Positions 2,449 through 54,152 of a stretch of 64,000 nt of DNA are shown one piece after another; position 1 is the first letter of the stretch, and the number at the start of each line of letters is the position of its first letter. The stretch is from Verrucomicrobiia bacterium (GTDB taxonomy: Bacteria > Verrucomicrobiota > Verrucomicrobiia > Limisphaerales > UBA11358), in NCBI GenBank assembly GCA_036498725.1, contig DASYEY010000126.1, forward strand, positions 3,089 to 67,088, given 5' to 3'. The notes beneath the pieces were generated by a model, which made no database searches, had not been told where the DNA came from, and saw only the letters and a list, made by a program, of their open reading frames with translations. The position numbers and the translations under genes are program-made.

Positions 2449-5400
2449 ATGGACATGAAAAAATTATTTGCCGGAATGATCGTCTCCTTTCTGGCGGCGG
2501 CCGCTTTTGCCGCCACATGTGATCGGCCAGCGATTATTCCATTGCCGCAACAGTTGGACTTTCAAGCCGGCGCATTTCAAATGGGTTCGGGTACGGAAAT
2601 TTTCGCAGATTCCGGGTCGCTGCCCACGGCACAGCAGTTGGCGCGGCAACTTCGTCCGGCCACCGGCTATTCGTTCAAGGCCAGCCGCCAGATTGGAACG
2701 GAGCACGGGGTTGCGGGCGGCATCTGGCTCACGATCCAAAATGCCGATGCCAGTCTTGGCCGGGAAGGGTACGAGTTGATCGTCACGACCAATAATGTGG
2801 TCATCCGCGCCCCGACGACGACCGGCTTGTTCTACGGGGTGCAAACCTTGTTGCAATTATTGCCGCCGGCGATCTTTTCCACCAATCCGGTAACGCATGA
2901 AAGCTGGCAGATTCCCTGCGTACGGATCAAGGATTGGCCGCGTTTCCCGTGGCGCGGTCTGATGCTGGATGTCAGCCGCCATTTTTACAATAAAAGCGAC
3001 GTGGAAAAAATCCTGGACCTGATGGCGCTGCACAAATTGAACATGTTCCATTGGCACCTGGTGGATGATCAAGGCTGGCGGATCGAGATCAAAAAATATC
3101 CATTATTGACGCAAGTCGGTGCCTGGCGAAAACAAAGTGCCTTGGGCAAGGCCAGCGCGGAGACCTATGCCCATCCAGCTTGGGCCATGCCGTCTGCTGA
3201 CAAATTTGGCAGCGATGGGCGTTACGGCGGATTTTATACGCAGGATGACATTAGGGAAATTGTCGCCTATGCGGCTGCCCGCCATATCACGATTGTTCCT
3301 GAGATTGAAATGCCGGGTCATTCCTCGGCGGCGTTGTCGGCGTATCCACAATTCGGCGATAACGGATTGGGCACCAATCGTTCAGTCAGCCGTGGCATCT
3401 ATGATCCCGCCCATGCGGGGACGTTTCAATTCTTAGATGATGTCTTGACCGAGGTGTTTCAGTTATTTCCCGGCAAATATATCCATATCGGCGGCGACGA
3501 AGTTAAAAAAGATTTTTGGAAGAACGATCCGGAATGCCAGTTGCTCATGCGGCGCGAAGGGCTGAAGAACGAAGAGGAGTTGCAAAGCTGGTTTGTCCGG
3601 CGCATGGAGAAATTTGTGAATGCCCAGGGCAGGACGCTCATCGGCTGGAGCGAAATTCTCCAGGGCGGGCTGGCGCAAAATGCCGTGGTCATGGATTGGA
3701 TCGGTGGTGGCCGGGAGGCGGCCAGCCAGGGACACGATGTGGTGATGACGCCCAATGTTTATTGTTATCTCAATTATTATCAATCCACGAACCATGCCAC
3801 GGAACCGCGCGCGCAGGGCGGCTACATTCCTTTGCAAAAAATTTATGCGTTCGACCTAATCCCCACGAACCTGCCAACGCCGGCGCAATCTCATATTCTT
3901 GGGGCCCAAGGGAACCTGTGGACGGAATGGATCGCTTCGTTGCCCCATGCCGAATATATGCTTTTTCCCCGGGCTTGTGCCCTGGCCGAAGTCGTCTGGT
4001 CAGCCAAGGATGCCCGCGACTTGAATGATTTTGAACGACGACTCAAAACCGATGAAGCCCGGCTCGATCAGTTAGGAGTTAATTATCGTCGTGACCCTTC
4101 CGGGTCAACAGCGGTTGATCCAGACCGGATAACCACCGATTACATAGATGCGAAAATTTCAAGGAGCCATCCGGGATTCGATGGTTTATCCGTTGATAGT
4201 CTGGGCCAAAAACATTTCTCATTGATAACCATAAGACCGCCCGCAGGTACTTTCTCTCCGGTGCAGGTGGTTCAAAAAGGTTCGCAATGGGAATATCGTC
4301 GCCGAGGTGCCAATGACGCAAATCCCCCGTGTTGGATGATTAAAATCGAGACGAATGAAATTTGCCTGGAATCCCGCTGGTCGGCTGATGACCCGCCTGA
4401 GCCATTGGTTTTTGACGCTGATAACAGCCGCTGCCATGTCACCATGCTGGGTTTGATGACAACGAATGGTTCGATTCGACTGCCGGCACTCATGCACTTT
4501 CCCGATCAAGGCACCTTCAGGATTTCCACCGGGCCGGAAATGGATCAACCGCTCGGTTATGCGGCGGAAAAGCGGGATGTGAAAATTACTTTTCCAGCGG
4601 CGACACAGAATCATCCCGTGGTGACGTATCACTGCAAAGTGGTTTCAATTCATCCGAATATTCCAGGCATCGAAGGCGATGCGCGCTTCGATGGCTTCCG
4701 CCGCAATTGGCTGAATATTTTTCAACTCAGCCCGAGCTTCCGCACGCTGGCCAATCATGCCGCCAGTGACACGTGCGCCTTTTGTTACTATGAGTTTGCC
4801 GACCTGGCGGTCCAGACACCGTCATTGGCCGATGGGTTTACTGCCCTGGATATGGTTCGCCAGACATTGGATGCAGTTATCGCCGGCCGGGCCAAGGCTT
4901 ATGGCCTGCCGTCACGCAGTCGCATCAATGAATTCATGTCGGATACGATTCCCTCGCTTTTGATTGCTGCTGACGACTACGTCGAAGGCAGTAAAGATGA
5001 GACGTGGCTGGCCACGAACTACGACCAACTAAAAACCTGGACGGACACCATGCTGGCTACGGATCACGACGGCAATGGCCTCATTGAGTATAAGTTGAGC
5101 GGTAATTCGGGTTCCTGGCCGGCGCAGTTTGTGCTAAGGCCGGCCAACTGGTGGGACACGATTGGTTTTGGGCACGAAGACGCTTACGCCAATGCTCTGG
5201 CCTATCGGGCGTTGCTCGACATGGAACAATTATCAAGGCAAGCCAATCACCCTGAGGATGCGACGCGGTATCACGCCGCCGCAGATAAGTTGAAGGCGGC
5301 TTACTTCAAAACATTTTACAATCCAGCCACTGGCATTCTGGCTGGCTGGCGCAGCGCCGACGGCCAGTTGCACGACTATTATTTTTTGTGGGTCAATGGC

Positions 5401-10921: not shown

Positions 10922-12324
10922 ATGCAAAATCTGCAACCAATCAAAACCTGGCGCGGCAATCTCACGCCGGATTGAGCCGGCGCCATTTCCTGCGCGGCCT
11001 GGGCGTTTGTCTGGCGGTGCCGGCTTTTGAATCATTGATGCCCACGCGATTGCTGGCTGCGGCCAGTTCGCCGGCGGCGGGTCTGGCGACCACGGCGACC
11101 GGTGCGCCACTGCGCACGGCGTTCGTTTATTTTCCGAATGGGGCGATTCCCGCTGCCTGGTGGCCGGCGAATGAAGGCAGTGATTTTTCCCTGAGCCGCA
11201 CGCTTCAGCCGCTGGCGGCGCACCAGAAACAGATCCAGGTGCTCAGCGGACTGGATCACTTGAATGCGATGGCGGGCATGGATGGCGGTGGTGATCATGC
11301 CCGCGCCAACGGAACCTTTCTTACCGGCGTGCGCTTGAAGAAAAGCGCCACGGACATTCACGCGGGTATTTCCATTGATCAAGCCATCGCGCGGCAGGTC
11401 GGGCATCTGACACGCTTTTCATCGTTGGAGTTGACGTGCGATGCCGGGCGCAACACGGGCGCGTGCGATTCCGGCTATTCCTGTGCCTATCAATACAATC
11501 TATCCTGGAGTTCACCCACCACGCCGATGACGCCCGAGGCCAATCCGCGTCAGGCTTTTGAACGGCTTTTTGGCGCCGGTGCGCCGGGCGAACGCGCCGC
11601 CAACGCCCAACGCCGCCGGCAGGAACAGCGGTCCGTGCTGGATTTCGTGATGCAGGATGCCGCGGCCATGCAACGTCGCCTCAGCGCGCGCGACCACGAC
11701 AAGCTGGACCAATATTTGACCGGGGTCCGGGAATTGGAAACGCGCATCCAAAGAGCGGAACAGTTCGGCGATGTGAAAGATCCGATGGTGCCGACGCCGG
11801 CGGGGATTCCGGCAGATTACGCGGAACATATCCATCTCATGTATGACACCATGTTGCTGGCGTTTCAGACGGATTCCACGCGCGTGGCGACAATGCTGCT
11901 CGCGCATGACGGCAGCAATCGTTCGTTCGCGGATATCGGGGTTCCCGAAGGTCATCATGATTTATCGCATCACCAAGGCAATGCGGAGAAGATCGAGAAG
12001 ATCACGGAGATTGACCTGTGGTATGTGCAACAGTTCGGAAAATTTCTCGATAAAATGGCGGCGACCAAGGATGTGGATGGCCAGTCGCTCCTGCAAAACT
12101 CGATGATTGTCTATGGCGGTGGCAACGCGGACGGCAACCGTCATACGCACACCAACCTGCCCATTGTGCTCGCCGGCGGCGGCGGCGGCACCTTGGCCAC
12201 CGGACGCTTTGTAAAGTACGGCGGCAAGCCGGCGTCGAATCTGTTCTTGAGCCTCGCCGATCGCATGGGCGTGAAAAATATGGAGCGCTTCGGTGATTCA
12301 ACGGGCCGGCTGGGGAATGTTTAA
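10918..12324 (+). CDS. DUF1552 family protein with twin-arginine leader (partner of the DUF1592-type protein)
   Basis: 'SRRHFLRGLGVCLAVPAFE' Tat-type leader. 'EGHHDLSHHQGN' and 'NLPIVLAGGGGG'. Translationally coupled to the upstream gene. Confidence 0.8.
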   Translation: MNAKSATNQNLARQSHAGLSRRHFLRGLGVCLAVPAFESLMPTRLLAAASSPAAGLATTATGAPLRTAFVYFPNGAIPAAWWPANEGSDFSLSRTLQPLAAHQKQIQVLSGLDHLNAMAGMDGGGDHARANGTFLTGVRLKKSATDIHAGISIDQAIARQVGHLTRFSSLELTCDAGRNTGACDSGYSCAYQYNLSWSSPTTPMTPEANPRQAFERLFGAGAPGERAANAQRRRQEQRSVLDFVMQDAAAMQRRLSARDHDKLDQYLTGVRELETRIQRAEQFGDVKDPMVPTPAGIPADYAEHIHLMYDTMLLAFQTDSTRVATMLLAHDGSNRSFADIGVPEGHHDLSHHQGNAEKIEKITEIDLWYVQQFGKFLDKMAATKDVDGQSLLQNSMIVYGGGNADGNRHTHTNLPIVLAGGGGGTLATGRFVKYGGKPASNLFLSLADRMGVKNMERFGDSTGRLGNV

Positions 12325-38462: not shown

Positions 38463-39590
38463 TCACCGCGAATATTTGCGTGGGCCGCGGGGCTTTCTTT
38501 TACGAAAGTGCTGCCATAACTGGAATAAAAAGAGCAGCAGCAGAAGAAGAAAAAGCCAGCCGAAGGTCCAGCGCAGGTAGTGGGCAATTTTCTGGTTTTC
38601 CGGGGAAATTTCCGGATCCACCGTGTTCGTCACCATTTCCACCTTGAGTGGCACATTGGTGATACTGGCAGGTTTGCGATGCGCGATATAATTGGACCCC
38701 TGAATCTCCGCCGGCATGGCAGAATAAGTTGTGCCATAGTTCGCCGGTGCCGATGCCAATGCCGACCGGGGAGGCTGTGATTGGCTATTATTTGGATAAT
38801 TTACTGCCGGGGCTGCAGCAGGTGCGGTCGTTTGATTTTGATAGCTCGTTGGTGTCGGGGAAGAACGCGGCGGTGATCCTGAATGACTGCCTGTTGCCCC
38901 CCCTGATGGATTTTGGAGAGCGGAGGGCATGAACAGATCATTGTCGCCGCGCTCCTGGTTTTCTGCCGGGCCAAAGCTTTTATTGTTCCATTCTTCAACG
39001 TGCCCGTCAGCGAACAACACATTGCCTTTGAACATATGCAATTCACGGGTCCACTGAAAATGCACGCCGACATGGTCACGCAAAATGGAAGGAGCCAGTG
39101 CCGGATAGGCAACGAGATTGCGGTCGCCAGCCACGATGGATGTCGGTTTAAAATAATCTGCATTTACGCCGGCGAAGTAACTCAAATTGCTATTTTGCAG
39201 GCTGGAAAAATTGAAGGCCGGTGACCGGTCATCGGTCGGGCAGGCCAAAATGCTGGGGGTGCCCAATTCATTCGACAACGTCTGGAAAATCCGGAAGGTA
39301 AAGTAGAAGGGGCCAGTCACCAGATAGCCGTTCTGCACAAATTCCAGGGCGCCACCTTCGTTGCCGGGCACGGCCATGGGAAACCGGCTATTATGATCAT
39401 GGGCAAACATCTGAAAACCAAGGCCGGTCTGCCGGAGGTTGTTTTCACACCAAATCCGCTTTGCCCGATTCTCACTATTAGTCACCGCCGGCATCAAAAG
39501 GGCGGCGAGCAGGGCGATGATAGAAATGACGACCAGCAATTCAACGAGGGTGAATCCCTGCCTCGGCCAACGACTTTGGTTTGCCTTCAT
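38463..39590 (-). CDS. Prepilin-leader/H-X9-DG pseudopilin-like protein with low-complexity linker and C-terminal TM anchor
   Basis: 'GFTLVELLVVISIIALLAALLMPAV'. 'HMFKGNVLFADGHVEEW' (H-X9-DG). S/P/T/N/Q-rich stretch. C-terminal 'WTFGWLFLLLLLLFLFQLW' followed by 'HFRKRKPRGPRKYSR'. ATG at 39590 is preferred. Confidence 0.8.
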   Translation of the reverse strand: MKANQSRWPRQGFTLVELLVVISIIALLAALLMPAVTNSENRAKRIWCENNLRQTGLGFQMFAHDHNSRFPMAVPGNEGGALEFVQNGYLVTGPFYFTFRIFQTLSNELGTPSILACPTDDRSPAFNFSSLQNSNLSYFAGVNADYFKPTSIVAGDRNLVAYPALAPSILRDHVGVHFQWTRELHMFKGNVLFADGHVEEWNNKSFGPAENQERGDNDLFMPSALQNPSGGATGSHSGSPPRSSPTPTSYQNQTTAPAAAPAVNYPNNSQSQPPRSALASAPANYGTTYSAMPAEIQGSNYIAHRKPASITNVPLKVEMVTNTVDPEISPENQKIAHYLRWTFGWLFLLLLLLFLFQLWQHFRKRKPRGPRKYSR

Positions 39591-39697
39591 GGTTAAAATG
39601 CCGTTAATAACCAACGCGCCATGCAAATTCCCCTGGAAATCTGAAGGTTGATGGTTTTAGCGGGTGTAGATTTCATGCAATGGAGCATAAACTCAAG

Positions 39698-39907
39698 TTA
39701 AAGTTCATCTTCACGTTCGGTATAAAATAATTGATAAGCGCGGTCATAATCCGCTTCGGGCACGAAAACTTGGGCAGCGCGATCCAGATCGCCGTCATCG
39801 GGCCGGGTTGGATCCACAAATTCTTGCGTCGCGGCGATGCCATGTTTTTCCAGCATCACGACCAGCAACTCTGTTTTCACGACTTGTCCGGTGAAGAAAA
39901 GTTTCAC
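39698..39907 (-). CDS. Small DUF2007-like (putative signal-transducing, PII-like fold) protein
   Basis: 69 aa. The 'VVKTELLVVMLEKHGIAAT...VFVPEADYDRAYQLF' pattern resembles DUF2007. The assignment is by pattern only. Confidence 0.45.
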   Translation of the reverse strand: MKLFFTGQVVKTELLVVMLEKHGIAATQEFVDPTRPDDGDLDRAAQVFVPEADYDRAYQLFYTEREDEL

Positions 39908-39988
39908 GTTGAGGTTATAGTTAAAACCGCCCTGATTTTCCCGAATTTACAAAACTAGGAATAATTCGCTCCGTTTGCAGCTAAAAAG

Positions 39989-40645
39989 TCAGGGCACAGC
40001 CAGGCGATTGGTAGCAACCCCGGTTTGCGCCACCGCTTGTTGCAGGCCGGCCTGGCTGAATTGCTGAACGCTGCCGTCGGCAAAGGCAATATTGCCGGCG
40101 AATTTGTGGCGCGTGGCGGACCAGTTAATCGGGGCGTTGGTGGAAAATTCCACCAGGCCAAATTTTACCGGAAGGCCGTTGATTTCCAGATTATCATCGC
40201 CCGATAACAGCATTTGGACATTCGTTTCAGTGGCGTCAACACCGGCGAAATAACTACTATTTTGGCCGGTGAAACCGATTGTAAAGTTGGTTGCCATCAC
40301 TCCACTGGCATCGTCCGGACAAAGTAAGATTTTGGGTGTGCCCAATTCATTGGACATGACTTGAAAGACAGCAGCCGCATTGCCAGCCGCAGCCAATTCC
40401 ATTGCACCGCCATTGGTCACGGAAATGGCCATGGGATACTTATCTCCATTATCGCCTTCCCAAAGCCGAAACGCGAGGCCGACTTGTTTGAGGTTGTTGA
40501 CACAACTAAGCCGGGAAACATGGTGATGAGGGCTGCTTATGCCAGGTAAAAATACCGCTGCCAGAATCATCACGATGGCTACGACTACCAGCACTTCAAA
40601 TACAGTCATGGCGGTGGATTTATTATTTGAGGGGTATGGCTTCAT
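39989..40645 (-). CDS. Prepilin-leader/H-X9-DG pseudopilin-like protein
   Basis: 'MTVFEVLVVVAIVMILAAVFLP' hydrophobic leader. 'CVNNLKQVGLAFRLW'. 'HKFAGNIAFADGSVQQF' (H-X9-DG). ATG at 40645 is preferred over the longer track ORF. Confidence 0.75.
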   Translation of the reverse strand: MKPYPSNNKSTAMTVFEVLVVVAIVMILAAVFLPGISSPHHHVSRLSCVNNLKQVGLAFRLWEGDNGDKYPMAISVTNGGAMELAAAGNAAAVFQVMSNELGTPKILLCPDDASGVMATNFTIGFTGQNSSYFAGVDATETNVQMLLSGDDNLEINGLPVKFGLVEFSTNAPINWSATRHKFAGNIAFADGSVQQFSQAGLQQAVAQTGVATNRLAVP

Positions 40646-40715
40646 GCGATTAGGTTTAGCATCGGCAATGCCAGCGCGATTTGCCAAGGAATTTGCGTTT
40701 TGAACCGATTCCCAT

Positions 40716-40746: not shown

Positions 40747-41023
40747 ATGCGCGCAGGAAATCAAAATACTTTGCGATATGTAGTCATTTGCCCATGGGCA
40801 AGCACGAGTCGCCTCAAGCTAAAAGGATACCGAGGGAATGCGTTGATTAGGGATTTGTTGCCGGGTATGGGTAAAAATAGTTGTTGCGTTTAGCGGTATT
40901 TGCCCGTAAATAAAGGCTGTCAAAGGTTCAGTTCCGGGGGCGATGGCGCACCGGACAATTTCTAAAATTCACTTTTCCAGCAATTTTTCGGAAGGGTTTC
41001 AAGCCTTTGGACACACATTTATT

Positions 41024-42178
41024 ATGAGCGAAACGCAAGCTAACGGCGAAAAGCCGTCCGGTCCCAATCCCAATTACGGTTCAGGTTATCTCGAAATCTC
41101 CGAAAAAGGTTTCGGATTCCTCCGCACCGCGCAAAATCATTTTCATCCCAAGCCGACCGATATCTTCGTCACGCCGGATACCATCCGCCGCAATTTTCTG
41201 CGCGAAGGCAGCTTTATTGAAGGCGCGACGCAGCCGCCGCATCGCGGCACCAGCCCGCAACTCAAGACTGTGGACAAGGTGAACGGCATGGTTTTTCAGG
41301 AATACACCAAGGCCGTCCGCTTTGAAAATTTGACCAGCATTGATCCAATTGAAAAATTCAATCTGGAAACCGCGCCGGATGTTTTGGAAACGCGCGTGAT
41401 TGACCTGGTCACGCCGATCGGCAAGGGCACGCGCGGTCTCATTGTCGCGCCGCCGCGCACCGGCAAGACCACCATTCTCAAACAGATCTGCAATGCTGTC
41501 ACGACGAACCATCCCGACGTGCACGTGATGGTCCTGCTGATAGATGAACGTCCCGAAGAAGTCACGGACTTTCAACGCTCGGTGAAGGCTGAAGTCGTCG
41601 CTTCCTCGAATGACATGGAATTGGAAACGCACGTCCGCCTTTCGCGGTTTATGATCGAACGTTGCCGTCGAATCGTTGAATCCGGCAAGGACGTTTTCGT
41701 GTTGATGGATTCGCTCACGCGTATCGCCCGCGCTTACAACTCCGTTCACGGTGGTTCCGGCCGCACGATGACCGGCGGGGTGGACGCGCGCGCCTTGGAA
41801 ATTCCGCGCAAGATGTTTGCCTCCGCACGCAAGATTGAGAACGGCGGTTCGCTGACCATTCTCGCCACCGCCCTCGTGGATACCGGTTCGCGCATGGATG
41901 AACTGATCTTTCAAGAGTTCAAGGGCACCGGCAATATGGAATTGATTTTGGACCGCAAGCTGTCCGACCGGCGTCTGTTCCCGGCGATTGACATCCCGAA
42001 ATCCGGCACGCGCAAGGAAGAAAAATTGTTCGCGGCAAAAAACCTCGAGGCCATCCGCAAACTTCGCCGCACGATGGTGGATTTGAACCCCATCGAAGCG
42101 ATGGAGACGCTTACCGCTGCGCTCAAGAAAAACAAGACCAACGATGAGCTGCTCGCGAAGTTGGAAAAAAACGCGTGA
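41024..42178 (+). CDS. rho: Transcription termination factor Rho (short N-terminus)
   Basis: 'GSGYLEISEKGFGFLR' (CSD-like RNA-binding domain). Walker A 'APPRTGKTT'. 'VLLIDERPEEVTD'. 'RLFPAIDIPKSGTRKEE'. ATG at 41024 ('MSETQ') is preferred; the track start 40943 adds 27 non-homologous residues. Confidence 0.9.
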   Translation: MSETQANGEKPSGPNPNYGSGYLEISEKGFGFLRTAQNHFHPKPTDIFVTPDTIRRNFLREGSFIEGATQPPHRGTSPQLKTVDKVNGMVFQEYTKAVRFENLTSIDPIEKFNLETAPDVLETRVIDLVTPIGKGTRGLIVAPPRTGKTTILKQICNAVTTNHPDVHVMVLLIDERPEEVTDFQRSVKAEVVASSNDMELETHVRLSRFMIERCRRIVESGKDVFVLMDSLTRIARAYNSVHGGSGRTMTGGVDARALEIPRKMFASARKIENGGSLTILATALVDTGSRMDELIFQEFKGTGNMELILDRKLSDRRLFPAIDIPKSGTRKEEKLFAAKNLEAIRKLRRTMVDLNPIEAMETLTAALKKNKTNDELLAKLEKNA

Positions 42179-42213
42179 GCCGTTGAGGGGTTGAATCGTT
42201 AAATCGCTTTCCA

Positions 42214-43212
42214 ATGCGACCACCTGACGATTCAACCAAAGCAAGTTCGCCGCTATCGCGTCCGCCGCTGGAGCGGATGCTGCGCATCCATCAGGCGTTG
42301 CTGGCGGACAAGTTTCCCAACGCCAGCAAGCTCGCGCGCGAAATTGAGGTTTCGACCAAGACCATCCATCGCGACATCGAGTTCATGCGTGACCGGCTGA
42401 ATCTGCCGATCGAATTCAAAGCCGGCCGCAATGGTTATTTCTACGACGGCGAAGTCAGCGGGTTTCCCACGATGCAGATTACCGAGGGCGAAATTTTCGC
42501 GCTCGTCGTCGCGGAAAAGGCCTTGCAACAATATCGCGGCACCAGTTTTGAAAAGCCGCTGCTTAGCGCCATCCGCAAAATGGAGCAGTCCCTGCCGGAC
42601 ACGATTTCCCTCAACCTGGCCGACATTGAGCAGACCATTTCCTTCCGCACCCGCGCTGAGCCGATTCTGGATCTGAAAATTTTTGACGTGCTCGCCCGGG
42701 CTGTCGCGCAACGCCAGCAGTTGGAACTGCATTATCGCAAGCCCGGCCAATCAGCGGAGAAACGCCTGGTGGATCCGTATCATCTCGCCAACATCAATGG
42801 CGAATGGTTTCTCTTTGCCTTTGATCACGCGCGCAAAGACATCCGCAATTTTGTTCCGGCGCGCATCCAATCCGTGCAACCCACGGGAAAGTTTTTTGAG
42901 CGCACGGAAAAGTTCTCCCTGGAAAAACGGTTGCGCGACAGCTTCGGCGTTCACGCCGGCGAAGGGAAATATGAGGTGGCCATCCGCTTCACGCCGCGCG
43001 CAGCTGATTATATTCGTGAAAAAAAATGGCACGCTTCGCAGACCTTGCGTGATTTGAAGGATGGCGGCGCCGAACTCACGCTGAAACTTTCCAGCCTGGG
43101 TGAAATCGAACGCTGGGTTTTGAGCTGGGGCGGCGAGGCTACAGTTTTGCAACCGCCCGAGCTGGTGTCCGCCATCCGGGCCGCCGCTGAAAAAATTCTG
43201 GCATCGGCCTGA
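42214..43212 (+). CDS. HTH + WYL domain transcriptional regulator
   Basis: N-terminal 'LERMLRIHQALLADKFPNASKLAREIEVSTKTIHRDIEFMRDRL' (HTH_11/DeoR-like). WYL-type core 'RLVDPYHLANINGEWFLFAFDHARKDIRNFVPARI'. WCX-like C-terminus. Confidence 0.8.
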   Translation: MRPPDDSTKASSPLSRPPLERMLRIHQALLADKFPNASKLAREIEVSTKTIHRDIEFMRDRLNLPIEFKAGRNGYFYDGEVSGFPTMQITEGEIFALVVAEKALQQYRGTSFEKPLLSAIRKMEQSLPDTISLNLADIEQTISFRTRAEPILDLKIFDVLARAVAQRQQLELHYRKPGQSAEKRLVDPYHLANINGEWFLFAFDHARKDIRNFVPARIQSVQPTGKFFERTEKFSLEKRLRDSFGVHAGEGKYEVAIRFTPRAADYIREKKWHASQTLRDLKDGGAELTLKLSSLGEIERWVLSWGGEATVLQPPELVSAIRAAAEKILASA

Positions 43213-43216
43213 CCGT

Positions 43217-43338
43217 CGCTACAATTTTTAGGTAGGGCCAAGCTGCCACTTGGCCCATTATTTATCAACGACGCGGGTGGTTTGCTCGTCACCTGATCTT
43301 TTTGCCACGCGACGGCGAAGCAGCAACTTCGCCCTACC
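43217..43338 (+). repeat. ~120-nt structured repeat, family C, copy 1 (upstream of the giant gene)
   Basis: 'CGCTACAA..GGTAGGGCCAAGctgccaCTTGGCCC....GGCGAAGcagcaaCTTCGCCCTACC'. The outer complementary ends are GGTAGGGC/GCCCTACC, enclosing two internal hairpins. Colinear with 50641-50757. Confidence 0.8.
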
Positions 43339-43610
43339 AGCCATCGCTTCGGTGGGGTTATCTGCTGCCATGGTTATCTTCCCGAATTCGCGAAAATATG
43401 TGTAATTCGCGTAAAACGCCTTTCCTTCGCCTCCTTAGCGCTCTTAGCGCGACATTCTGGATTCTGACTTTTGCCTTCTGGTCTTATTAAGTGTCTTAAA
43501 TTTGGAAATTCATTGCCGTTTGAGACAAATCTGCCAGACTCGGCGCGAATCAAGAACAAGGATTTCTGAAGCAAAATCTCAGAAAACCATCAGAAGGGAA
43601 AAGAGAAAAA

Positions 43611-46600
43611 ATGAAAAAGGGTTTTTCGTGGGCACGTGTTTTCAATTTTGGCACTCAAAAATCGTTTGCTTTATTAGCGTTAGGGCTAGGACTGCTAATC
43701 AGCTTCACTCTCCCCAATGCCGTTGCCCAAACGCCGCCGCTGAGTTTTCAAGGCCGTATCCTGGTCGGCGGCAAATCTTTCAATGGCGCGGGCCAATTCA
43801 AGTTTGCACTGGTAGATAGCACGGGCGCGACCACTTTCTGGAGCAACGACGGCACGAGCACGGCCGGTTCGCAACCGACGGGCTCAGTCTCGCTGACGCT
43901 GACGAACGGGCTGTATGCGATCTTGCTGGGCGACACGACCGTGTCGGGCATGACACAGTCAATCAGCGCGGATATCTTCACGAACAGCGATGTGCGGTTG
44001 CGGGTATGGTTCAACGACGGTACGCACGGATTTGAACAACTGACGCCGGATCAGCGACTGGCGGCTTCGGGTTATGCCTTGATGGCAGGGAGTGTGGCTT
44101 CGGTTTCGGCGCAAAATATCACCGGGGCGATTTCACTGGCACAACTGCCGGTGAGTGTGGTGACGAATGGTGCAGCAGGCGTGAACATTTCCGGCACGTA
44201 CAGCGGCAATGGGGCGGGCGTAACCAATGTGGATCTCCAGACGACTGAGTCACATAGTGCCATCAATTGGGTGCAAAATTGGGGAGCTTTCACATTGGTA
44301 TCTTCGCCGTTCGCTGGTTCTGGTCCAAGTTCGATCACATCGGCCGATGTCAACGGGGATGGGAAACCGGATTTGATCACCGCCGCGGCTGGCAGCAGCC
44401 AGTTGAATGTGCTGACGAATGACGGCTGGGGCGGTTTTGTCTCTGCAGGTGCCTACGCGGTAGGTAATACGCCTGTCTTTGTGACTTCAGCTGACGTGAA
44501 TGGCGATGGCAAACCGGATTTGATCAGTGCTAATTTTCAAGCCAATAGTTTAACGGTATTGACCAATGACGGCAGCGGTGGTTTCGCGGTGTCAGGCACC
44601 TTGACCGTCGGCGATCATCCGTATGCCGTTGCCGCCGCGGATATCAACAATGATGGCAAGGTGGATTTGATCTCGGCTGATCGCTATGCCAATACCTTGA
44701 CGATACTGACGAATGATGGCAGCGGTGGTTTTGCGGTTTCCAGCACATTGGTGGTGGGTGCGCAGTCCTTGTTTGTGCTCGCCGCGGATGTCAACGGCGA
44801 CAGCAAACCTGATTTGATCAGCGTTAACTATGATGATGCGACGTTGATTGTGCTGACCAATAATGGCAGCGGCGGTTTTGTGCCGGCTTCCACCAACGCG
44901 GTTGGTTTTCGTCCGCAGGCAGTCGTGGCTGCGGATGTGAATGGTGATGGCAAGCTGGATTTAATTTCTGCCAACGGCGGTGCCAATACGCTGACGGTGT
45001 TGACCAATGACGGCAGTGGTGGTTTTGCATTGTCCGGGACCTTGCCGGTGGGCAGCCATCCCTATGGAATCACAGTGGCGGATGTCAACGGCGACGGTAA
45101 AATCGATTTGATTTCAGCAAATAACGGTGACAATACACTGACGGTATTGACCAACAATGGCGCCGGTGGTTTTGGCTTGGCGGCTTCGCTCGCTGTGGGC
45201 GCTGGCCCGGTCTCGGTCACAGCTGCTGATATCAATCGTGACGGTCAGGTAGATCTGATCAGTGCCAATCAGAATAACGGCACCCTTTCGGTGCTGACCA
45301 ATACGCTGATTTCAATTAAAGCGACTTTTCAGGGCACTTTCTCCGGTGATGGCGCAAGTGTGAGCAATCTGAACGCTTCGCAAATCTCCAGCGGTACGCT
45401 CGCGCTGGCGCAATTGCCGGCCAATGTAGTGACCAATCATGCCACGGGTGTCACTTTGAGCGGAACCTTCAATGGTGATGCCGGCGGCTTGACGAATTTG
45501 AACGCGTCGCAGATTTCCAGCGGCACGATTGCGTTGGGGCAATTGCCCGCCGGCGTGCTGACGAATGGTGCCAGCGGCGTCAATATCAACGGCACGTTTA
45601 GCGGCAATGGCGCAGGTATCACCAATATGGATCTAACGACTGCCAATGCTTATGGCTCGATCGGCTATGTGCTTCATCGGGGCGTTTTTCAATTTGCGGC
45701 CTCAATTGTGCCGGGCGTTGATACGTATTTCGTCATTTCGGCGGACATCAACGGGGATGGTAAACCGGATGTGATCTCTGTGAGCATTGGCAATAACTCG
45801 TTGATCGTATTGACCAACAATGGCAATGGTGGCTTGGGTCTATTCGCCACGCCAGGCGTGGGCCGCAACCCAAGATCGGTCGTCGCGGCAGATGTTAATG
45901 GTGATGGCAAACTAGATTTAATCAGCGCGAATCAGACCGATTCCACCCTGACGATATTGACCAATGACGGTCTCGGTGGGTTTGCGTTTTCTGCCACCCG
46001 CGCGGTCGGTGCCAGCCCTTTTGGGGTGGCGGCCGCAGATGTAAACGGCGACGGCAAGGTGGATCTGATCAGTGCGAATGCGAATGACTCGACCCTGACA
46101 ATCTTGACCAACAACGGCAGTGGTGTCTTTGTGCTTTCCGCCACCGTTAGCGTGAGTAACAGCCCCGTTTCAGTCGTCGCGGCGGATGTCAACGGCGACG
46201 GTAAGGTGGATTTGATTTCTGCGAATAACGGTGATGCCACGCTGACGGTATTGACGAACAATGGCAGCGGTGGCTTTATGCTTTCCACCACTGTAAACGC
46301 TGGTGTGAACCGATATCCGAATGCGCTCGCGGCGGTAGATGTCAATGCGGATGGTAAAGTGGATTTGATTTCTGCAAACCGTGGTGAAAATTCCCTGACC
46401 GTATTTACGAACAATGGCAACGGCGGTTTCGTATTTTCATCTGCCGTTGGCGTCGGCAACAATCCCGATGGCATTACGGTGGCCGACGTGAACGGGGATG
46501 GGAAGCCGGATTTTGTTGTTGCGAACTTTTATGGCAGTTCACTAACGGTGGTGACCAATGCGGGTAACGGCGGGTTTGCGTTATCTTCCACCATCGGCAC

Positions 46601-49600
46601 GAGCTATTACGCTTATTCGGTCGCGGCGGCGGACCTCAACGGCGATGGCAAGCCGGATTTGATCAGCGCGAATTACGATAGCACACTGGAAATATTCACC
46701 AACACCACAACAGCTGACGCAAGTTTTGCCGGCAGTGGTAGCAGCTTGACCGGCCTGAATGCTTCGCAAATCACCAGCGGCACGCTGGCGCTGGGGCAAT
46801 TGTCTGGAGCGGTGGTGACGAACGGGGCGAGTGGTGTGAGTATCGCTGGTACTTTCACCGGTGATGGCACGATGTTGACGAATATTCCCCTGGCCGGGCT
46901 GGATGCCCGCAGCGGCCTTGTAGTAACGACCAATTTCTATCTATTCAATGCGTCAGCGACGATACCAACGGGACAGGAACCATTTTGGGTCACGGCGGCG
47001 GATGTCAACGGTGACGGTCTGCCCGATTTGATCAGTGCCAATCGTTTTGATGATTCGCTGACGGTGTTCACCAATAATGGCAGCGGCGGGTTTATTCCCG
47101 CTTCCACAAACTTCCTCAATTACGGCGCTGGCCCGGCGTTTGTGCTGGCGACAAATGTGGATAATGTCGGTGGTGTGGACCTGATCAGTGCCAATGAAGA
47201 TGACGGCACGTTGACGGTGTTGACCAATAGCGGCGACGGCACGTTTGGCGTGGCTTCCACGGTCTATGTCGGTGGCAGTCCAGAAGTGATCGCGGCGGCG
47301 GATTTTAATGATGACGGAGTGTTGGATCTGGCGTGTGCCAATTATGCCGATGATTCGCTGGCGATATTTTTTGGCAACGGCGATGGTACATTCACTTTTA
47401 CCAACACCGTTTCATGTGGCAGCGGCCCGGTTTCTGTGGCAGTGATTGATTTGAACGGGGATTCAAGCCTCGATTTGGTCGTGGCCAATTATAATGACAA
47501 CACGCTGGTGGGGCTTACGAATGATGGCACTGGTAATTTTACGGCGGCCTTTGCCAATGAAGTGGGTGAGGGTCCGAGTTCGGTTGTGGTGGGTGATGTG
47601 AATAATGATGGTTTGTCGGATTTGATCAGTGCCATTCAATATGACGGTACCGTAATCGTGTTGACGAATAATGGTGACGGCACATTTACGGCGGCCTCCA
47701 CGAACAACGTCGGGGCGTACCCTTTTTCTGCGACGGTGGCGGATGTGAATGGCGACGGCAACCTGGATGTGATCAGTGCCAATTCCTTCTATCTGGACAA
47801 TACCTTGAGCGTATTGTTGGGCAATGGCGACGGCAGCTTCACGGCGGAAACGGGTTCACCCTACGCGACGGGTTCCGGGCCTTTGACAGTGGCGGTGGCG
47901 GATGTGAATGGTGACAGTCATCTTGATTTGGTCAGCGTCAATGAATACGACAATACGCTCACTGTCCTGACGAATACGGCAGGTGTGCCGGTTTATGTCA
48001 CTCACTTTACGGGTGACGGTTCGGGTTTGACGGGGTTGAATGGCTCGCAGATCACTAGTGGCACGATTCCTGAGACGCGTCTGCCCAACAGCGTGACGGC
48101 TTTGCCCAATCTCCTCCAGATTTATAATTATCTGCCGGCCTATGTTCTGGATCCGGATCTGGCCTTGCGGGATGGCTACCAGACCTTTACCGGCGCAAAT
48201 AATTTTAATAATCCGAACAATACTTTTAATGGCACGTTCACCGGCGATGGAGCGGGTGTGTCGAATGTAAATCTCCTGACGGCTAATTCCGTGGGAGCGA
48301 TCAACTGGGGTACGAATCATCTGACGACATTTACACCGGGTTCCTCGCCCGGCGTAGGCGCAGGACCTCTGGGTCTCGTGACGGCGGACGTGAATGGCGA
48401 TAGCAAAATGGATTTGATCACCGCCAACTCAGGCGATAACACGCTGACGGTGCTAACGAACAATGGGTGTGGCGGGTTTGTGACGTCAGGAACTTATCCG
48501 GTTGGCGATTTTCCTTATTCGGTCACGGCGGCGGATGTGAACAACGATAACAAAGTGGATTTGATCTGCGCGAACAATCTCGGCAACACACTGACAGTAT
48601 TGACGAACGATGGTAGTGGCGGATTTGTGATGTCGGGAACTTATAGTACGGCGGGCAGCGGTCCGATATCGGTCACGGCGGCGGATGTCAACGACGATGG
48701 AGCCAAGGATTTGATTGTCGCTATCTATGCCACCAGCACGGTGCAGGTGCTGACAAATGATGGTTATGGCGGATTTGTGGCGTCCGGAACCTATCATGTG
48801 GGCGCTAATAGCACGTCCAGTCCGAATTATCCGTTTTTTGTCACGACAGCAGATGTGAACGGCGATGGCGAAGTGGATTTGATCACTGCGAACGCAGGTG
48901 ACAACTCGCTGACGGTGCTGACGAACGATGGTAGTGGCGGATTTGTAGAGTCGGGAACTTATCCGGTGAACCTCCAGCCTTGGTCGGTTGCAGCGGCAGA
49001 TGTGAACGGCGATGGCAAGGTGGATTTGATCAGTGCCAACGAATATTATGGATCCAGTTCACTGACGGTGCTGACGAATGATGGCAGCGGCGGGTTTGCG
49101 ACGTCGGAAAATTATTTCGTGCCTGGCAATCCTGCTTCTGTTGTCGCTGCCGATGTCAACGGTGACTGCAAAATGGATTTGATCTGCGCGACCTATGGTG
49201 ACAATACCCTGACGGTGCTCACGAACAATGGGGCCGGCGAATTTGCGATGATGGGAGCTTATTCCGTGGGTGACTCAGATCAGTCGGTGGTTGCGACGGA
49301 TGTCAATGGTGACGGCCGGGTGGATTTGATCAGTGCAAATTATAGCGATAACACGCTAACGGTGCTGTTGAATCAAGTCAGTACCAATTATACGCCATCG
49401 TTTGCCGGAAATTTCACCGGCGATGGCAGCGGGCTGGCCAATCTAAATGCTTCCCAATTGACCGGTGTTATCCCATCAACCACTTTGCCGGCATTGGTGA
49501 TTACGAATGGCGCGAGCGATGTGACTATCACCGGCACGTTCAGCGGCGATGGCAGCGGGTTGACCAATCTTGATTACAATAACATTGCCAATCCTCCGGC

Positions 49601-50585
49601 CATTCCTTCAATCGACGGTTTGGTCACAGCCTCCGTGACGAATGGCTTGGTCACGGCGAGTGTGACAAATGGGCTGGCGTCAATCAGTTATGTCATCGCG
49701 GCGACGAATGGGCTGGTTAAAGCTTCCGTCACCAACGGTTTGGTTACGGCTGCCGTCACGAATGGCCTGGCGTCAACAGCCTATGTCATTGCAGCGACCA
49801 ACGGTTTGGCGACGACCACTTTTGTCACCGCTGGTTTTACGGCCAATAACAACGGGCTGGCGACGAATCTGATGGTCAATACTTTGGCGGCCAGCAATCT
49901 GTTTTTGAGTGGAGCGATGAATGCCCTGGCACAACCGATTTATTTGCGGGGTTCCAATGACGTGAATCACGGTATCGGCTACGCTTCCGCCGCGACGAAC
50001 TTCACGGCCTTAAATCCGCCTGACGGTCCGATGATGTGGGGTTACGGTGGCGGCGCTTTGGGCAGCATGAATGGCGGTGCAAAGTTGGGGTTGGTCTGGA
50101 CGGCGACGGGCGTCGGCATCGGTCTCAACGCCACCAATCCAACGTCGACGTTGCAAGTCAATGGCAATGCCACGGTCAATGGCAACTTGACCAATACCGG
50201 CAGCATGATTGTTGGTGGCAATATTACTACCAGCGGTGGCACCGTTACCGCCAGTTCTGTCCGCATTGGGGCTAATTATGCCCCCAACAGCACCGAAAAC
50301 CTACGCATCGTGCGGGGACATGCCATCTACAGTGGCTCAACTGTTTTAACCGCTGGTGCCGGGTTCTCGGTGACTCGCAGCAGCGTGGGGCAGTATTCAA
50401 TCACGTTCTCGCCCGGTTTCAGTGACACGCCGATGTTGACCATAACGCCTTGGGGCGGATCGCCGACCATGGCAGTAGTGGGCTTCACTCTCTCAACCGG
50501 ACCCTGTCCGGTGAGTTTTTATAACACATCTGGAGTGCTGACTGATCCGACAGCCTTTGATTTCATCGCCGTGGGTACTCCGTGA
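43611..50585 (+). CDS. Giant secreted protein (2,324 aa): tail-fibre-like N-terminal module and stalk motifs carrying 4 x 7 FG-GAP/VCBS propeller blades, with a C-terminal tip domain
   Basis: Signal peptide '...LLISFTLPNAVAQ'. 28 units matching '(A/V)ADVNGDGK(P/V)DLISAN..(D)NTLTVLTN(D/N)GSGGF'. Linker motifs 'TFSGNGAGVTN(V/L/M)(D/N)L' and 'LNASQISSGTLALAQLP'. Confidence 0.85.
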   Translation: MKKGFSWARVFNFGTQKSFALLALGLGLLISFTLPNAVAQTPPLSFQGRILVGGKSFNGAGQFKFALVDSTGATTFWSNDGTSTAGSQPTGSVSLTLTNGLYAILLGDTTVSGMTQSISADIFTNSDVRLRVWFNDGTHGFEQLTPDQRLAASGYALMAGSVASVSAQNITGAISLAQLPVSVVTNGAAGVNISGTYSGNGAGVTNVDLQTTESHSAINWVQNWGAFTLVSSPFAGSGPSSITSADVNGDGKPDLITAAAGSSQLNVLTNDGWGGFVSAGAYAVGNTPVFVTSADVNGDGKPDLISANFQANSLTVLTNDGSGGFAVSGTLTVGDHPYAVAAADINNDGKVDLISADRYANTLTILTNDGSGGFAVSSTLVVGAQSLFVLAADVNGDSKPDLISVNYDDATLIVLTNNGSGGFVPASTNAVGFRPQAVVAADVNGDGKLDLISANGGANTLTVLTNDGSGGFALSGTLPVGSHPYGITVADVNGDGKIDLISANNGDNTLTVLTNNGAGGFGLAASLAVGAGPVSVTAADINRDGQVDLISANQNNGTLSVLTNTLISIKATFQGTFSGDGASVSNLNASQISSGTLALAQLPANVVTNHATGVTLSGTFNGDAGGLTNLNASQISSGTIALGQLPAGVLTNGASGVNINGTFSGNGAGITNMDLTTANAYGSIGYVLHRGVFQFAASIVPGVDTYFVISADINGDGKPDVISVSIGNNSLIVLTNNGNGGLGLFATPGVGRNPRSVVAADVNGDGKLDLISANQTDSTLTILTNDGLGGFAFSATRAVGASPFGVAAADVNGDGKVDLISANANDSTLTILTNNGSGVFVLSATVSVSNSPVSVVAADVNGDGKVDLISANNGDATLTVLTNNGSGGFMLSTTVNAGVNRYPNALAAVDVNADGKVDLISANRGENSLTVFTNNGNGGFVFSSAVGVGNNPDGITVADVNGDGKPDFVVANFYGSSLTVVTNAGNGGFALSSTIGTSYYAYSVAAADLNGDGKPDLISANYDSTLEIFTNTTTADASFAGSGSSLTGLNASQITSGTLALGQLSGAVVTNGASGVSIAGTFTGDGTMLTNIPLAGLDARSGLVVTTNFYLFNASATIPTGQEPFWVTAADVNGDGLPDLISANRFDDSLTVFTNNGSGGFIPASTNFLNYGAGPAFVLATNVDNVGGVDLISANEDDGTLTVLTNSGDGTFGVASTVYVGGSPEVIAAADFNDDGVLDLACANYADDSLAIFFGNGDGTFTFTNTVSCGSGPVSVAVIDLNGDSSLDLVVANYNDNTLVGLTNDGTGNFTAAFANEVGEGPSSVVVGDVNNDGLSDLISAIQYDGTVIVLTNNGDGTFTAASTNNVGAYPFSATVADVNGDGNLDVISANSFYLDNTLSVLLGNGDGSFTAETGSPYATGSGPLTVAVADVNGDSHLDLVSVNEYDNTLTVLTNTAGVPVYVTHFTGDGSGLTGLNGSQITSGTIPETRLPNSVTALPNLLQIYNYLPAYVLDPDLALRDGYQTFTGANNFNNPNNTFNGTFTGDGAGVSNVNLLTANSVGAINWGTNHLTTFTPGSSPGVGAGPLGLVTADVNGDSKMDLITANSGDNTLTVLTNNGCGGFVTSGTYPVGDFPYSVTAADVNNDNKVDLICANNLGNTLTVLTNDGSGGFVMSGTYSTAGSGPISVTAADVNDDGAKDLIVAIYATSTVQVLTNDGYGGFVASGTYHVGANSTSSPNYPFFVTTADVNGDGEVDLITANAGDNSLTVLTNDGSGGFVESGTYPVNLQPWSVAAADVNGDGKVDLISANEYYGSSSLTVLTNDGSGGFATSENYFVPGNPASVVAADVNGDCKMDLICATYGDNTLTVLTNNGAGEFAMMGAYSVGDSDQSVVATDVNGDGRVDLISANYSDNTLTVLLNQVSTNYTPSFAGNFTGDGSGLANLNASQLTGVIPSTTLPALVITNGASDVTITGTFSGDGSGLTNLDYNNIANPPAIPSIDGLVTASVTNGLVTASVTNGLASISYVIAATNGLVKASVTNGLVTAAVTNGLASTAYVIAATNGLATTTFVTAGFTANNNGLATNLMVNTLAASNLFLSGAMNALAQPIYLRGSNDVNHGIGYASAATNFTALNPPDGPMMWGYGGGALGSMNGGAKLGLVWTATGVGIGLNATNPTSTLQVNGNATVNGNLTNTGSMIVGGNITTSGGTVTASSVRIGANYAPNSTENLRIVRGHAIYSGSTVLTAGAGFSVTRSSVGQYSITFSPGFSDTPMLTITPWGGSPTMAVVGFTLSTGPCPVSFYNTSGVLTDPTAFDFIAVGTP
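44320..45303 (+). repeat. FG-GAP propeller block 1 (7 blades; approximate bounds)
   Basis: Seven consecutive ~48-aa units, from 'ITSADVNGDGKPDLITAA' to 'TAADINRDGQVDLISANQNNGTLSVLTNT'. Confidence 0.7.
45711..46706 (+). repeat. FG-GAP propeller block 2 (7 blades; approximate bounds)
   Basis: Seven units, from 'VISADINGDGKPDVISVS' to 'AAADLNGDGKPDLISANYDSTLEIFTNT'. Confidence 0.7.
46966..47977 (+). repeat. FG-GAP propeller block 3 (7 blades, most divergent; approximate bounds)
   Basis: Seven units, from 'VTAADVNGDGLPDLISAN' to 'AVADVNGDSHLDLVSVNEYDNTLTVLTNT'. Several blades end 'GDGTF' instead of 'GSGGF'. Confidence 0.7.
48352..49376 (+). repeat. FG-GAP propeller block 4 (7 blades; approximate bounds)
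   Basis: Seven units, from 'LVTADVNGDSKMDLITAN' to 'VATDVNGDGRVDLISANYSDNTLTVLLNQ'. Confidence 0.7.
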
Positions 50586-52958: not shown

Positions 52959-54152
52959 TCAGCCAAATTTTTTCAGAATATTTTCCAAGCCGCCTTCATT
53001 CGGCTCGATGATAATCCGGTCCTTGTCCTTCGCCGCCGGCCTGGTCGGAATGCCCGGCTGGTTTTTGGAAAATCTGGCTGCGTTCGCCATCGGCGGCAAT
53101 GCGGCTGCGTCCGGGGCCGCCTCGCCGGATTCGTTTTCCACCGGTTCCGCGTTTTGACCGGGTATAAACCAGTTCGTCCGGCTTTCCAGCCATTTGGCGT
53201 AACGTTGAAACGTCCACATGTCATGGTCCGCACCGGTTTCGAGGGCGGTGGAGATTTTAAAAAAGTCGCGGGTACGGATAAAATTTTTGACCGCATGAGT
53301 GGCGATCAGGATTTCGCATTCGGGCACGCGGATGTTCAAGTCCGGCCGGAAGCGCAACCGTTGGGAAACGACCGCGACCAGGCAGTCCGCCAATTGCGCG
53401 CAGACCGCCCCTTGGATTTCTGCCGGGAAGGCCGAGGCAACGCGCTGGATGGCTTCCGCACACGTCGAGGAATGGACGGTGGCCAGTACCAGATGCCCGG
53501 TTTCCGAGGCGTTCAACGTGAGCCGCATCGTCTCCGGTTCGCGCATTTCGCCCACCATCAACACATCCGGATCTTCCCGCAACGAATCCAGCAAAGCTTG
53601 CTCAAAACTAGGTGTGTCGCGGCCAACTTCGCGTTGCCGGATGAAAGCGCGACGCGGGCGGAAGGAATGTTCAATCGGGCTTTCCACCGTGATGATGTGC
53701 CGCGTATCGGTGAGATTGATCTCCTGGATCAAGGCGGCGAGGGTCGTGGATTTTCCGCAACCCGTGGGGCCGCTGACCAGAATCAGGCCGTGCGGATGGC
53801 GGATCAATTTCTTGAGGTCAGGATGCAGGTTCAGCTTTTCCACCGTGGCTTGGAACGAGGTCAATAAACGGATCGCCATGCCGACGCCGCGGGATGATTG
53901 CAGGACATTGATACGGCAGCGGACGCCGTGGATGGTTTTGGAAAAATCAAACGAACGCCGTTCCAGAAAATGCTGCCATTGTTCTTCGCTCAGAAGTTGC
54001 CGGGCCATGCCGGTCATCACGGCGGCCGGGATGGCCTCGCCTGCCACGCGCAACGTGCCGCGTACGCGCAGGGCGGGTGACAGGCCGGATTCCAGGTGCA
54101 GATCGCTCGCCCCGCTGGTCACGGCCAGACCGATCAATGATTCCAAATCCAT
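52959..54152 (-). CDS. pilT: PilT-family type IV pilus retraction ATPase homologue with ~60-aa C-terminal extension
   Basis: Walker A 'SGPTGCGKSTT'. 'DPDVLMVGEMRE'. His box 'ETGHLVLATVHS'. 'ITVESPIE'. Confidence 0.85.
   Translation of the reverse strand: MDLESLIGLAVTSGASDLHLESGLSPALRVRGTLRVAGEAIPAAVMTGMARQLLSEEQWQHFLERRSFDFSKTIHGVRCRINVLQSSRGVGMAIRLLTSFQATVEKLNLHPDLKKLIRHPHGLILVSGPTGCGKSTTLAALIQEINLTDTRHIITVESPIEHSFRPRRAFIRQREVGRDTPSFEQALLDSLREDPDVLMVGEMREPETMRLTLNASETGHLVLATVHSSTCAEAIQRVASAFPAEIQGAVCAQLADCLVAVVSQRLRFRPDLNIRVPECEILIATHAVKNFIRTRDFFKISTALETGADHDMWTFQRYAKWLESRTNWFIPGQNAEPVENESGEAAPDAAALPPMANAARFSKNQPGIPTRPAAKDKDRIIIEPNEGGLENILKKFG

Follow-up and report, generated by a model that had tools for sequence, protein, structure and literature searches.

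In 2024, the mosaic adhesive trimer (MAT) fibres were described as the set of tools by which Bdellovibrio recognises its prey; they are defined by a signal peptide, a conserved ~130-aa β-rich N-terminal domain (N-domain), a fibre of three intertwined chains and a tip that varies (Caulton et al. 2024, PMC10769870). The paper and its supplements make no mention of propellers, nor the supplements of FG-GAP or Verrucomicrobia (PMC10769870). Here we analyzed a 64,000-nt stretch of a Verrucomicrobiia (Verrucomicrobiae) bacterium genome (contig DASYEY010000126.1, positions 3,089 to 67,088; hereafter the window), in which one open reading frame (ORF) encodes a 2324-aa protein whose closest characterised relatives are the Bdellovibrio MAT fibres. 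Like the MATs of the Bdellovibrio bacteriovorus subgroup without a Peptidase_S74 (S74) domain (Bd2133), this protein has a signal peptide, a β-rich N-terminal domain that is likely homologous to theirs, a long repetitive shaft and a swappable C-terminal tip. Its neck rung is homologous to the Bd2133 β-helix by profile (weakly so for its own segment), and its family is mosaic, with several genomes having more than one N-domain locus and with diverse tips including S74. It differs from them in belonging to Verrucomicrobiota, with no predatory lifestyle known for the organism, in an N-domain scoring below the cutoff of the Bdellovibrio subfamily, in shaft repeats that come from other sequence families, in the four FG-GAP propellers within the shaft, and in the fold of the tip.

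Propellers of this kind are known from other contexts. Integrin-alpha-type FG-GAP propellers (the lectins PVL and AAL2, and the bacterial FG-GAP/VCBS giants) share with the 2324-aa protein the Pfam repeats, the seven blades and the DxDxDGxxD-type Ca2+ loops; the propellers of the giants are contiguous, with neither N-domain nor fibre repeats, whereas those studied here would stand in-line in a fibre between conserved junctions. The trimeric receptor-binding protein of the Staphylococcus aureus phages 80alpha and phi11 has a five-bladed propeller in mid-chain, between its stem and tower domains (10.1101/721746), and the eBAP3 fibres of extracellular contractile injection systems (eCIS) carry β-propeller lectins (PMC12923769). 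The likeness lies in a β-propeller binding module on a trimeric fibre (the trimer being presumed in our case), but theirs are single propellers on particle parts without a signal peptide, whereas our protein has four seven-bladed ones on a putatively cell-exported fibre. Tail-fibre and endosialidase proteins with S74 are a further point of reference: many relatives with the same shaft repeats and a propeller end in Peptidase_S74, whereas the 2324-aa protein lacks this domain and ends in a small β-sandwich tip. On the evidence given below, we consider the gene product to be probably an adhesive fibre of the MAT type, exported by the Sec pathway and displayed on the cell surface.

Four Blocks of Seven FG-GAP Blades

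A motif scan anchored on the 'DxNxDGxxD-L' loop identified 28 FG-GAP blades with a period of ~49 aa, grouped 7+7+7+7 (first motif residues at aa 246-540, 712-1008, 1131-1431 and 1593-1897). This is exactly the count and the strict grouping put forward in the original prediction, which had been made from the sequence alone and whose block coordinates agree with ours within a few tens of nt. The Pfam families FG-GAP_3 (PF13517; E=4e-213, 690.6 bits vs. a cutoff of 26.9, 29 stretches) and FG-GAP (PF01839; E=7e-93, 304 bits, above the gathering score) were both matched. The Ca-loop consensus Dx[DN]x[DN]GxxD is present in strict form in 21 of the 28 blades and in relaxed form in 27, and the propellers presumably bind Ca2+; Pfam also gave a Dockerin_1 cross-match in the 2324-aa protein and Dockerin_1 and EF-hand matches in relatives.

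Propeller 1 was predicted by AlphaFold2 (AF2; aa 29-705, 33-sequence alignment) at a per-residue confidence (pLDDT) of 90-98, with 28 β-strands that form seven four-stranded blades. In Foldseek searches, the model of this block superposed on complete 7-blade propellers over about 350 columns, with the best target-normalised TM-score (0.82) to LGI1 EPTP and the highest identities (19-21%) to the integrin-like Ca2+-dependent fungal lectins PVL and AAL2; other matches were CRTAC1 and the propeller of aldos-2-ulose dehydratase. The models support a closed seven-bladed propeller for block 1, and for blocks 2-4 the same closure is supported by their seven blades each and by the same entry junction. 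The four complete propellers proposed earlier are thus upheld, by modelling for the first block and by blade count and junction for the other three.

Blades of blocks 1, 2 and 4 share a mean identity of 0.50-0.56, whether compared inside one block or across blocks; the value for block 3, which had rightly been singled out as clearly more divergent, is 0.40-0.45. Blades from different blocks are as similar to each other as blades from the same block, and no same-position signal was found; the DNA identity between any two blades is at most 76.5% (mean 53-60%), in line with the earlier view that the blocks are not recent copies of one another. Duplication of whole propellers was considered as the origin of the blocks and rejected, since blades in the same position are no more alike than others.

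The fourfold repeat comes from a metagenome-assembled source and a repeat-rich ORF, and might be an artefact of assembly or gene calling. However, an independent metagenome contig of the Joint Genome Institute (JGI; sample 3300036781), which has a different start position, spans the entire ORF and aligns gap-free along 23,308 nt at 99.996% identity; the two assemblies differ by 1 mismatch across 23.3 kb. Because blade identity in DNA does not exceed 76.5% and two assemblies agree without gaps, an assembly artefact is very unlikely, and with a single unbroken ORF in which the junctions are ordered and distinct, we regard this explanation as close to negligible and the repeat number as real.

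Shaft, Neck and Tip

The linkers between the blocks measure 77-126 aa and carry the motifs 'GTFSGNGAGxTNxxL' and 'LNASQISSGTLALAQLP'. Both motifs had been recognised from the sequence, where the linkers had been put at 100-135 aa. The motifs belong to a fibre repeat of ~43 aa (fibre-A, 'GTFSGNGAGLTNLNASQISSGTLALAQLPxxVVTNxAxGVxL'), which aligns in register with the RefSeq 'tail fiber protein' of the T4-like Synechococcus phage S-SRM01 (linker in tblastn, E=1e-8; pairwise, E=1e-15). In this phage, gp051 (L080:5398-7401) sits between the distal subunit of the long tail fibre and the gp37-gp38 adhesin tip, and because its shaft repeat of ~40 aa ('F.G.G..LT.LNAS.I.SGTL...LP') is common with verrucomicrobial fibres, these alignments suggest that shaft modules have been exchanged between phages and cellular fibres. 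Proteins with the second repeat type (fibre-B) derive mostly from metagenome contigs. Four of them (P0246, P0248, P0251 and P0267, with 'TNGLVTAxVTNGLATTNYV' repeats) were named 'CRISPR/Cas system CMR subunit Cmr6' by JGI, which looks like an annotation artefact arising from low-complexity repeats.

The same entry junction, 'GTFSGNGAGVTNVNL.T.NS.GAI.W.TNWG.F.L.SSP', stands in front of each of the four blocks, as it does in front of the blocks in every relative examined. The shaft segments were modelled poorly as a monomer (pLDDT <60 in AF2). Scans of the isolated linkers and of the C-terminus against Pfam and NCBIfam found no significant family, and PHROGs returned only weak 'tail' matches or a family of unknown function. 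In the PDB, the N-terminus, linker 1 and the C-terminus, each searched as a single sequence, gave nothing useful, and the junction profile gave nothing.

In the neck, a profile of the neck/tip region (A2) matched trimeric MAT crystal structures, 8OND (Bd2133) with E=9.4e-13 and 8OML with E=1.3e-4, and more weakly 8ON4, 8OL4 and 8OJN; the matched part of these structures is the repeated β-helix rung '...GNVGIG..P.AKL.V.G'. A rung of the Bd2133 β-helix/prism type before the tip, as in MAT fibres, is thus recognised by the profile, and six homologues of the neck were found. The C-terminal region ends, as had been proposed, in a tip, which AF2 predicted as an eight-stranded β-domain (Table 1), with 9 sequence homologues among the fetched proteins, including mini-fibres of ~400 aa. 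Against predicted viral structures (BFVD), the tip gave 43 matches at E<=1e-3, mostly to the termini of phage tail fibres and tailspikes (e.g., the Klebsiella K5 tailspike at 1.5e-7 and several cyanophage tail fibres); weak PDB fold matches to tailspike, pyocin-fibre and lectin were treated as suggestive only. The relatives carry S74, FGE-sulfatase and other tips, consistent with a variable, independently folding C-terminal tip as in MATs.

N-Terminal Domain

The signal peptide, which MAT fibres also possess, was read from the sequence by eye, with a basic n-region, a hydrophobic core at aa 19-33 and 'AVA|Q' at aa 37-40. The module that follows had been flagged as tail-fibre-like; its quoted sequence, like that of the tip, is present in the ORF. 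It is probably a MAT-type N-domain: aa 29-163 matched the NCBIfam model NF053851 (Bdello_MAT_N) over nearly its full length (positions 3-147 of the 162 in the profile) at 25.7-33.2 bits, below the curated cutoff of 60 bits, with E=8e-6 when the module was searched alone and E=4e-8 in a 677-aa construct. The model was also matched independently by 23 of 33 relatives, and AF2 predicted the domain to be β-rich (pLDDT 60-89). Homology to the MAT N-domain is likely; a PDB profile search with the N-domain found nothing. Together with the register of the cyanophage repeat, the neck match, S74 in relatives and the phage-type fold of the tip, this domain supports the tail-fibre-like stalk of the original prediction.

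The N-domain is widespread. In the protein database it had 547 matches, of which those carrying names are from Verrucomicrobiota, and in species-representative genomes it was found at 563 loci, almost all in Verrucomicrobiota (best identity 70%). What the domain heads at these loci ranges from fibres with an S74 tip to double Kelch propellers, FGE-sulfatase domains and other proteins, some in tandem gene arrays: several genomes have two or three tandem N-domain genes (tandem ORFs in L028, L077, L011 and L056). At many genome loci, the N-domain precedes ORFs of roughly 800-1,000 aa; two N-domain ORFs that were scanned, L019:10001-12700 and L046:10001-13864 (900 and 1,288 aa), showed Kelch propellers. 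No FG-GAP blades occurred in the top 79 loci with an N-domain of the 'type I' variant in the genome scan; the propeller-bearing relatives were found through the junction profile (see below), and most of them carry a 'type II' variant. The two variants are homologous, because a hidden Markov model built from type II only matched the N-domain of the 2324-aa protein end-to-end (p=1e-11).

Table 1. Features of the 2324-aa protein and its gene, in positions of the window (nt) and of the protein (aa).
Feature	Protein (aa)	Window (nt)	Strand	Basis or remark
Terminator-like hairpins (two) ending the upstream rho/WYL-regulator unit		43235..43295	+	
Whole ORF	2324 + stop codon	43611..50585	+	ATG start, uninterrupted; JGI gene call identical
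Sec-type signal peptide, '...LPNAVA|QT'	1-39	43611..43727	+	read from sequence by eye
Probable MAT-type β-rich N-domain, 'type I' variant, presumed cell-proximal anchor	40-166	43728..44108	+	Bdello_MAT_N, type-II HMM, AF2
Fibre-A repeat and fibre-to-propeller junction 1	167-225	44109..44285	+	
FG-GAP propeller 1, 7 blades	226-565	44286..45305	+	motif scan, AF2, Foldseek
Linker 1, three ~43-aa fibre-A repeats and junction 2	566-691	45306..45683	+	
FG-GAP propeller 2, 7 blades	692-1033	45684..46709	+	Pfam, motif scan, blade identities
Linker 2, fibre-A repeat and junction 3	1034-1110	46710..46940	+	
FG-GAP propeller 3, 7 blades, most divergent	1111-1456	46941..47978	+	motif scan, blade identities
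Linker 3, fibre-A repeat, unrelated spacer, junction 4	1457-1572	47979..48326	+	
FG-GAP propeller 4, 7 blades	1573-1922	48327..49376	+	motif scan, blade identities
Two further fibre-A repeats	1923-1987	49377..49571	+	
Fibre-B repeat, 'TNGLVTAxVTNGLAxxxYV'	1988-2090	49572..49880	+	common to dozens of small fibre proteins
Neck, one MAT-type β-helix rung, '...WGYGGGALG...VGIGLNATNPTSTLQVNG'	2091-2228	49881..50294	+	A2 profile vs. PDB
C-terminal tip domain, eight-stranded all-β	2229-2324	50295..50582	+	AF2, pLDDT 82-92

A Family of Propeller-Bearing Fibres

To survey the family, a 60-position profile of the junction was run against 1.84 billion representative proteins, which yielded 525 clusters at E<=1e-3 (209 at E<=1e-10), among which the 2324-aa protein itself is not listed; blocks, N-domains and S74 were counted in the best 150 of the 525. 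FG-GAP blocks were present in 85 of the 150, 78 with one block (2 of these with a single run of 14 contiguous blades) and 7 with two separated blocks, and none of the 150 had three or four; the longest protein among them has 1,847 aa. The N-domain was found in 118 of the 150 and a Peptidase_S74 end in 38, and 27 of these 38 also have a propeller flanked by the same repeats (FG-GAP plus S74 in a single chain was confirmed by Pfam in P0333, P0350, P0408, P0375, P0325, P0418, P0026 and P0057). One of them, P0418 (1221 aa), has the N-domain, two kinds of propeller (FG-GAP and RCC1) and S74 in one chain, so that different propeller types are apparently strung on one fibre.

Judged by these domain arrangements, a propeller inserted in a MAT-like or S74-type fibre defines a real and recurrent family, seen chiefly in Verrucomicrobiota. 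The 2324-aa protein is the largest member found and the extreme of the family, and its four blocks are exceptional. The architecture had been put forward as one not known from earlier descriptions; it is not a one-off, since a sizeable family, itself uncharacterised, has the same plan with one or two propellers. In the literature (FG-GAP together with S74 or fibre) we found no description of a propeller-bearing fibre family.

The census also bears on the alternative that the protein is a monomeric giant adhesin of the FG-GAP/VCBS type, with its propellers as beads on a string and the linkers as flexible spacers instead of a trimeric shaft. Thousands of multi-propeller proteins exist in Planctomycetota and related phyla (2988 generic FG-GAP proteins at E<=1e-10), many of them 2100-2500 aa long; the 2324-aa protein lacks the S74 domain, and the N-domain also heads non-fibrous cargo (Kelch propellers, FGE-sulfatase). 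However, the generic giants, in which the propellers are contiguous, have neither the fibre motifs nor the N-domain, whereas the linkers of our protein are the very repeats that flank propellers in S74-terminated relatives and that recur in a phage tail-fibre gene, and the neck profile matches the solved trimeric β-helix of MATs. We therefore regard a monomeric adhesin as unlikely, though worth keeping in mind.

Another alternative is a surface-tethered scaffold for the processing or capture of polysaccharides instead of an adhesin proper; its propellers would hold or display the substrates on which extracellular enzymes act. In the relatives P0090, P0253 and L006, FGE-sulfatase-type domains are attached to the same N-domain and shaft, large glycosidases are encoded in the window, and the fold matches of the propeller include lectins and the aldos-2-ulose dehydratase propeller. 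Against this, no catalytic domain was detected in the 2324-aa protein and no polysaccharide-utilisation genes adjoin its gene, and we give the scaffold a low probability.

Proposed Structure and Function of the Fibre

Under the MAT-type reading, the signal peptide would direct export and the conserved ~130-aa N-domain would hold the fibre at the cell surface, while three chains probably intertwine into a shaft like that of a phage tail fibre, built of the ~43-aa 'GTFSGNGAGLTNLNASQ...' repeats, then the 'TNGLVTA...' repeats and then the MAT-type β-helix rung. At four fixed points, and always once half of a shaft repeat has been completed, each chain would loop out a closed seven-bladed FG-GAP propeller with integrin-type Ca2+ loops and rejoin the shaft where the following repeat begins. 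Closure of the ring in an FG-GAP propeller would place the N- and C-terminal strands side by side. A trimer would have four nodes of three propellers (12 in total) and a trimeric tip, the fibre ending in a small β-sandwich whose fold is also found at the termini of phage fibres and tailspikes. Propellers and tip would together offer multiple sites, probably binding glycans or cell surfaces, for avid attachment to particles or cells. Surface display, like the trimeric state, Ca2+ binding and any ligand, is inferred.

By analogy, the shaft is probably trimeric, because relatives with the same repeats have S74, the neck is homologous to the trimeric MAT β-helix, and the shaft segments give poor models as a monomer. 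The more specific picture, a homotrimeric fibre with four rings of three Ca2+-dependent, lectin-like propellers and a phage-type tip that acts as a beaded, multivalent capture organelle, is put forward tentatively, as a possibility that is somewhat less probable than not. The S-layer role that had been suggested as well found no support.

Several observations weigh against a MAT-type fibre. The N-domain does not reach the curated NCBIfam cutoff, and it also heads proteins with no obvious shaft (the double Kelch and FGE-sulfatase proteins), for which reason it may function as an anchor and not indicate a trimer. Trimerisation is deduced from the relatives; Pfam detected no Peptidase_S74 (PF13884) in the whole protein or in its C-terminal 407 aa. 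The neck segment of the protein itself matches the Bd2133 rung weakly (E=0.002), single-sequence PDB searches found no match, the neck/tip profile being the only one of the sequence and profile queries to succeed there, and no PDB structure matched the tip at E<=1e-3 in Foldseek. No outer-membrane export or anchor signals of the type IX secretion system, PEP-CTERM, autotransporter or YadA kinds were found in the protein, and no conserved neighbour or export partner at its locus or at those of the relatives P0016 and P0026, where the check for conserved neighbours proposed earlier was carried out. As to trimeric autotransporters, Pfam and NCBIfam scans detected no YadA-type C-terminal anchor, and faint YadA_head repeats were seen only in some relatives.

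A related system of N-domain, shaft and tip is abundant in Verrucomicrobiota, as the 563 loci indicate, and the family appears to have taken up β-propellers (FG-GAP, but also Kelch and RCC1) as in-line binding modules. The conserved insertion junction may also be of use in protein engineering, as a modular rule by which a globular domain can be set into a fibre. If the trimer model is true, the fibre would be a natural design for binding of very high avidity, and a tractable entry to the question of how the abundant, mostly uncultured Verrucomicrobiota of soil and freshwater attach to particles or neighbours. If the beaded trimer is real, it has no described counterpart, and MAT-type fibres, so far tied to Bdellovibrio predation, would be a phylum-wide cell-contact toolkit of Verrucomicrobiota, possibly for attaching to or preying on other microbes. 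The locus and its family thereby address a wider question, namely to what extent cells make use of phage-like fibres of their own and what these fibres target.

Genomic Context

The ORF has the same GC content as its flanks (about 0.54), and its neighbours are housekeeping genes or genes typical of the Planctomycetota-Verrucomicrobiota-Chlamydiota superphylum: rho, a WYL regulator, a release factor, arginyl- and threonyl-tRNA synthetases, PanB and a DUF1552/DUF158x set. The arginyl-tRNA synthetase encoded in the window is identical to that of a Verrucomicrobiae metagenome-assembled genome. With this composition and these neighbours, the fibre gene is a native chromosomal gene. The GC skew is raised to 0.11-0.15 over 44001-50000, probably from the Gly/Asp/Val-rich codons of the repeats rather than from a foreign origin.

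A tail fibre of a prophage, a tailocin or an eCIS would share the shaft repeats and the tip fold, which are common to phage tail fibres and tailspikes, and would account for the weak PHROG tail matches. But no phage, tailocin, eCIS or other injection-system genes were found across the 64-kb window, and hence no particle-gene cluster; the gene lies instead among rho, the release factor, the two tRNA synthetases and PanB. The protein has a Sec signal peptide and an N-domain of the MAT type, as fibres exported by cells do, and the contexts of the relatives are also chromosomal, which leaves the fibre of a particle with a very slim chance.

Because two terminator-like hairpins end the upstream rho/WYL unit, the fibre gene may form a separate transcription unit, as these hairpins suggest; the stretch 43296-43610 showed no sigma-70-like promoter, no terminator was found downstream of the fibre gene, and the window contains no paralogue of it. 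The WYL/WCX helix-turn-helix regulator (42214-43212) begins 36 nt after rho (region 40943-43295) and appears to share a transcript with rho and not with the fibre gene. Two prepilin-type N-methyl/DUF1559-like proteins are encoded upstream (38463-40687, minus strand), and an ATPase of the PilT/type II secretion E type downstream (52959-54152, minus strand); for neither has a link to the fibre been established. Near the start of the window, a 1,747-aa glycosidase (2449-7692, plus strand) combines GH20 catalytic, GH20b, rhamnosidase six-hairpin and MGH1-like/GDE_C domains. It is followed by two genes (8363-12324, plus strand), for a DUF1585/1587/1588/1592/1595 protein and a DUF1552 protein, a pair typical of Planctomycetota and Verrucomicrobiota.

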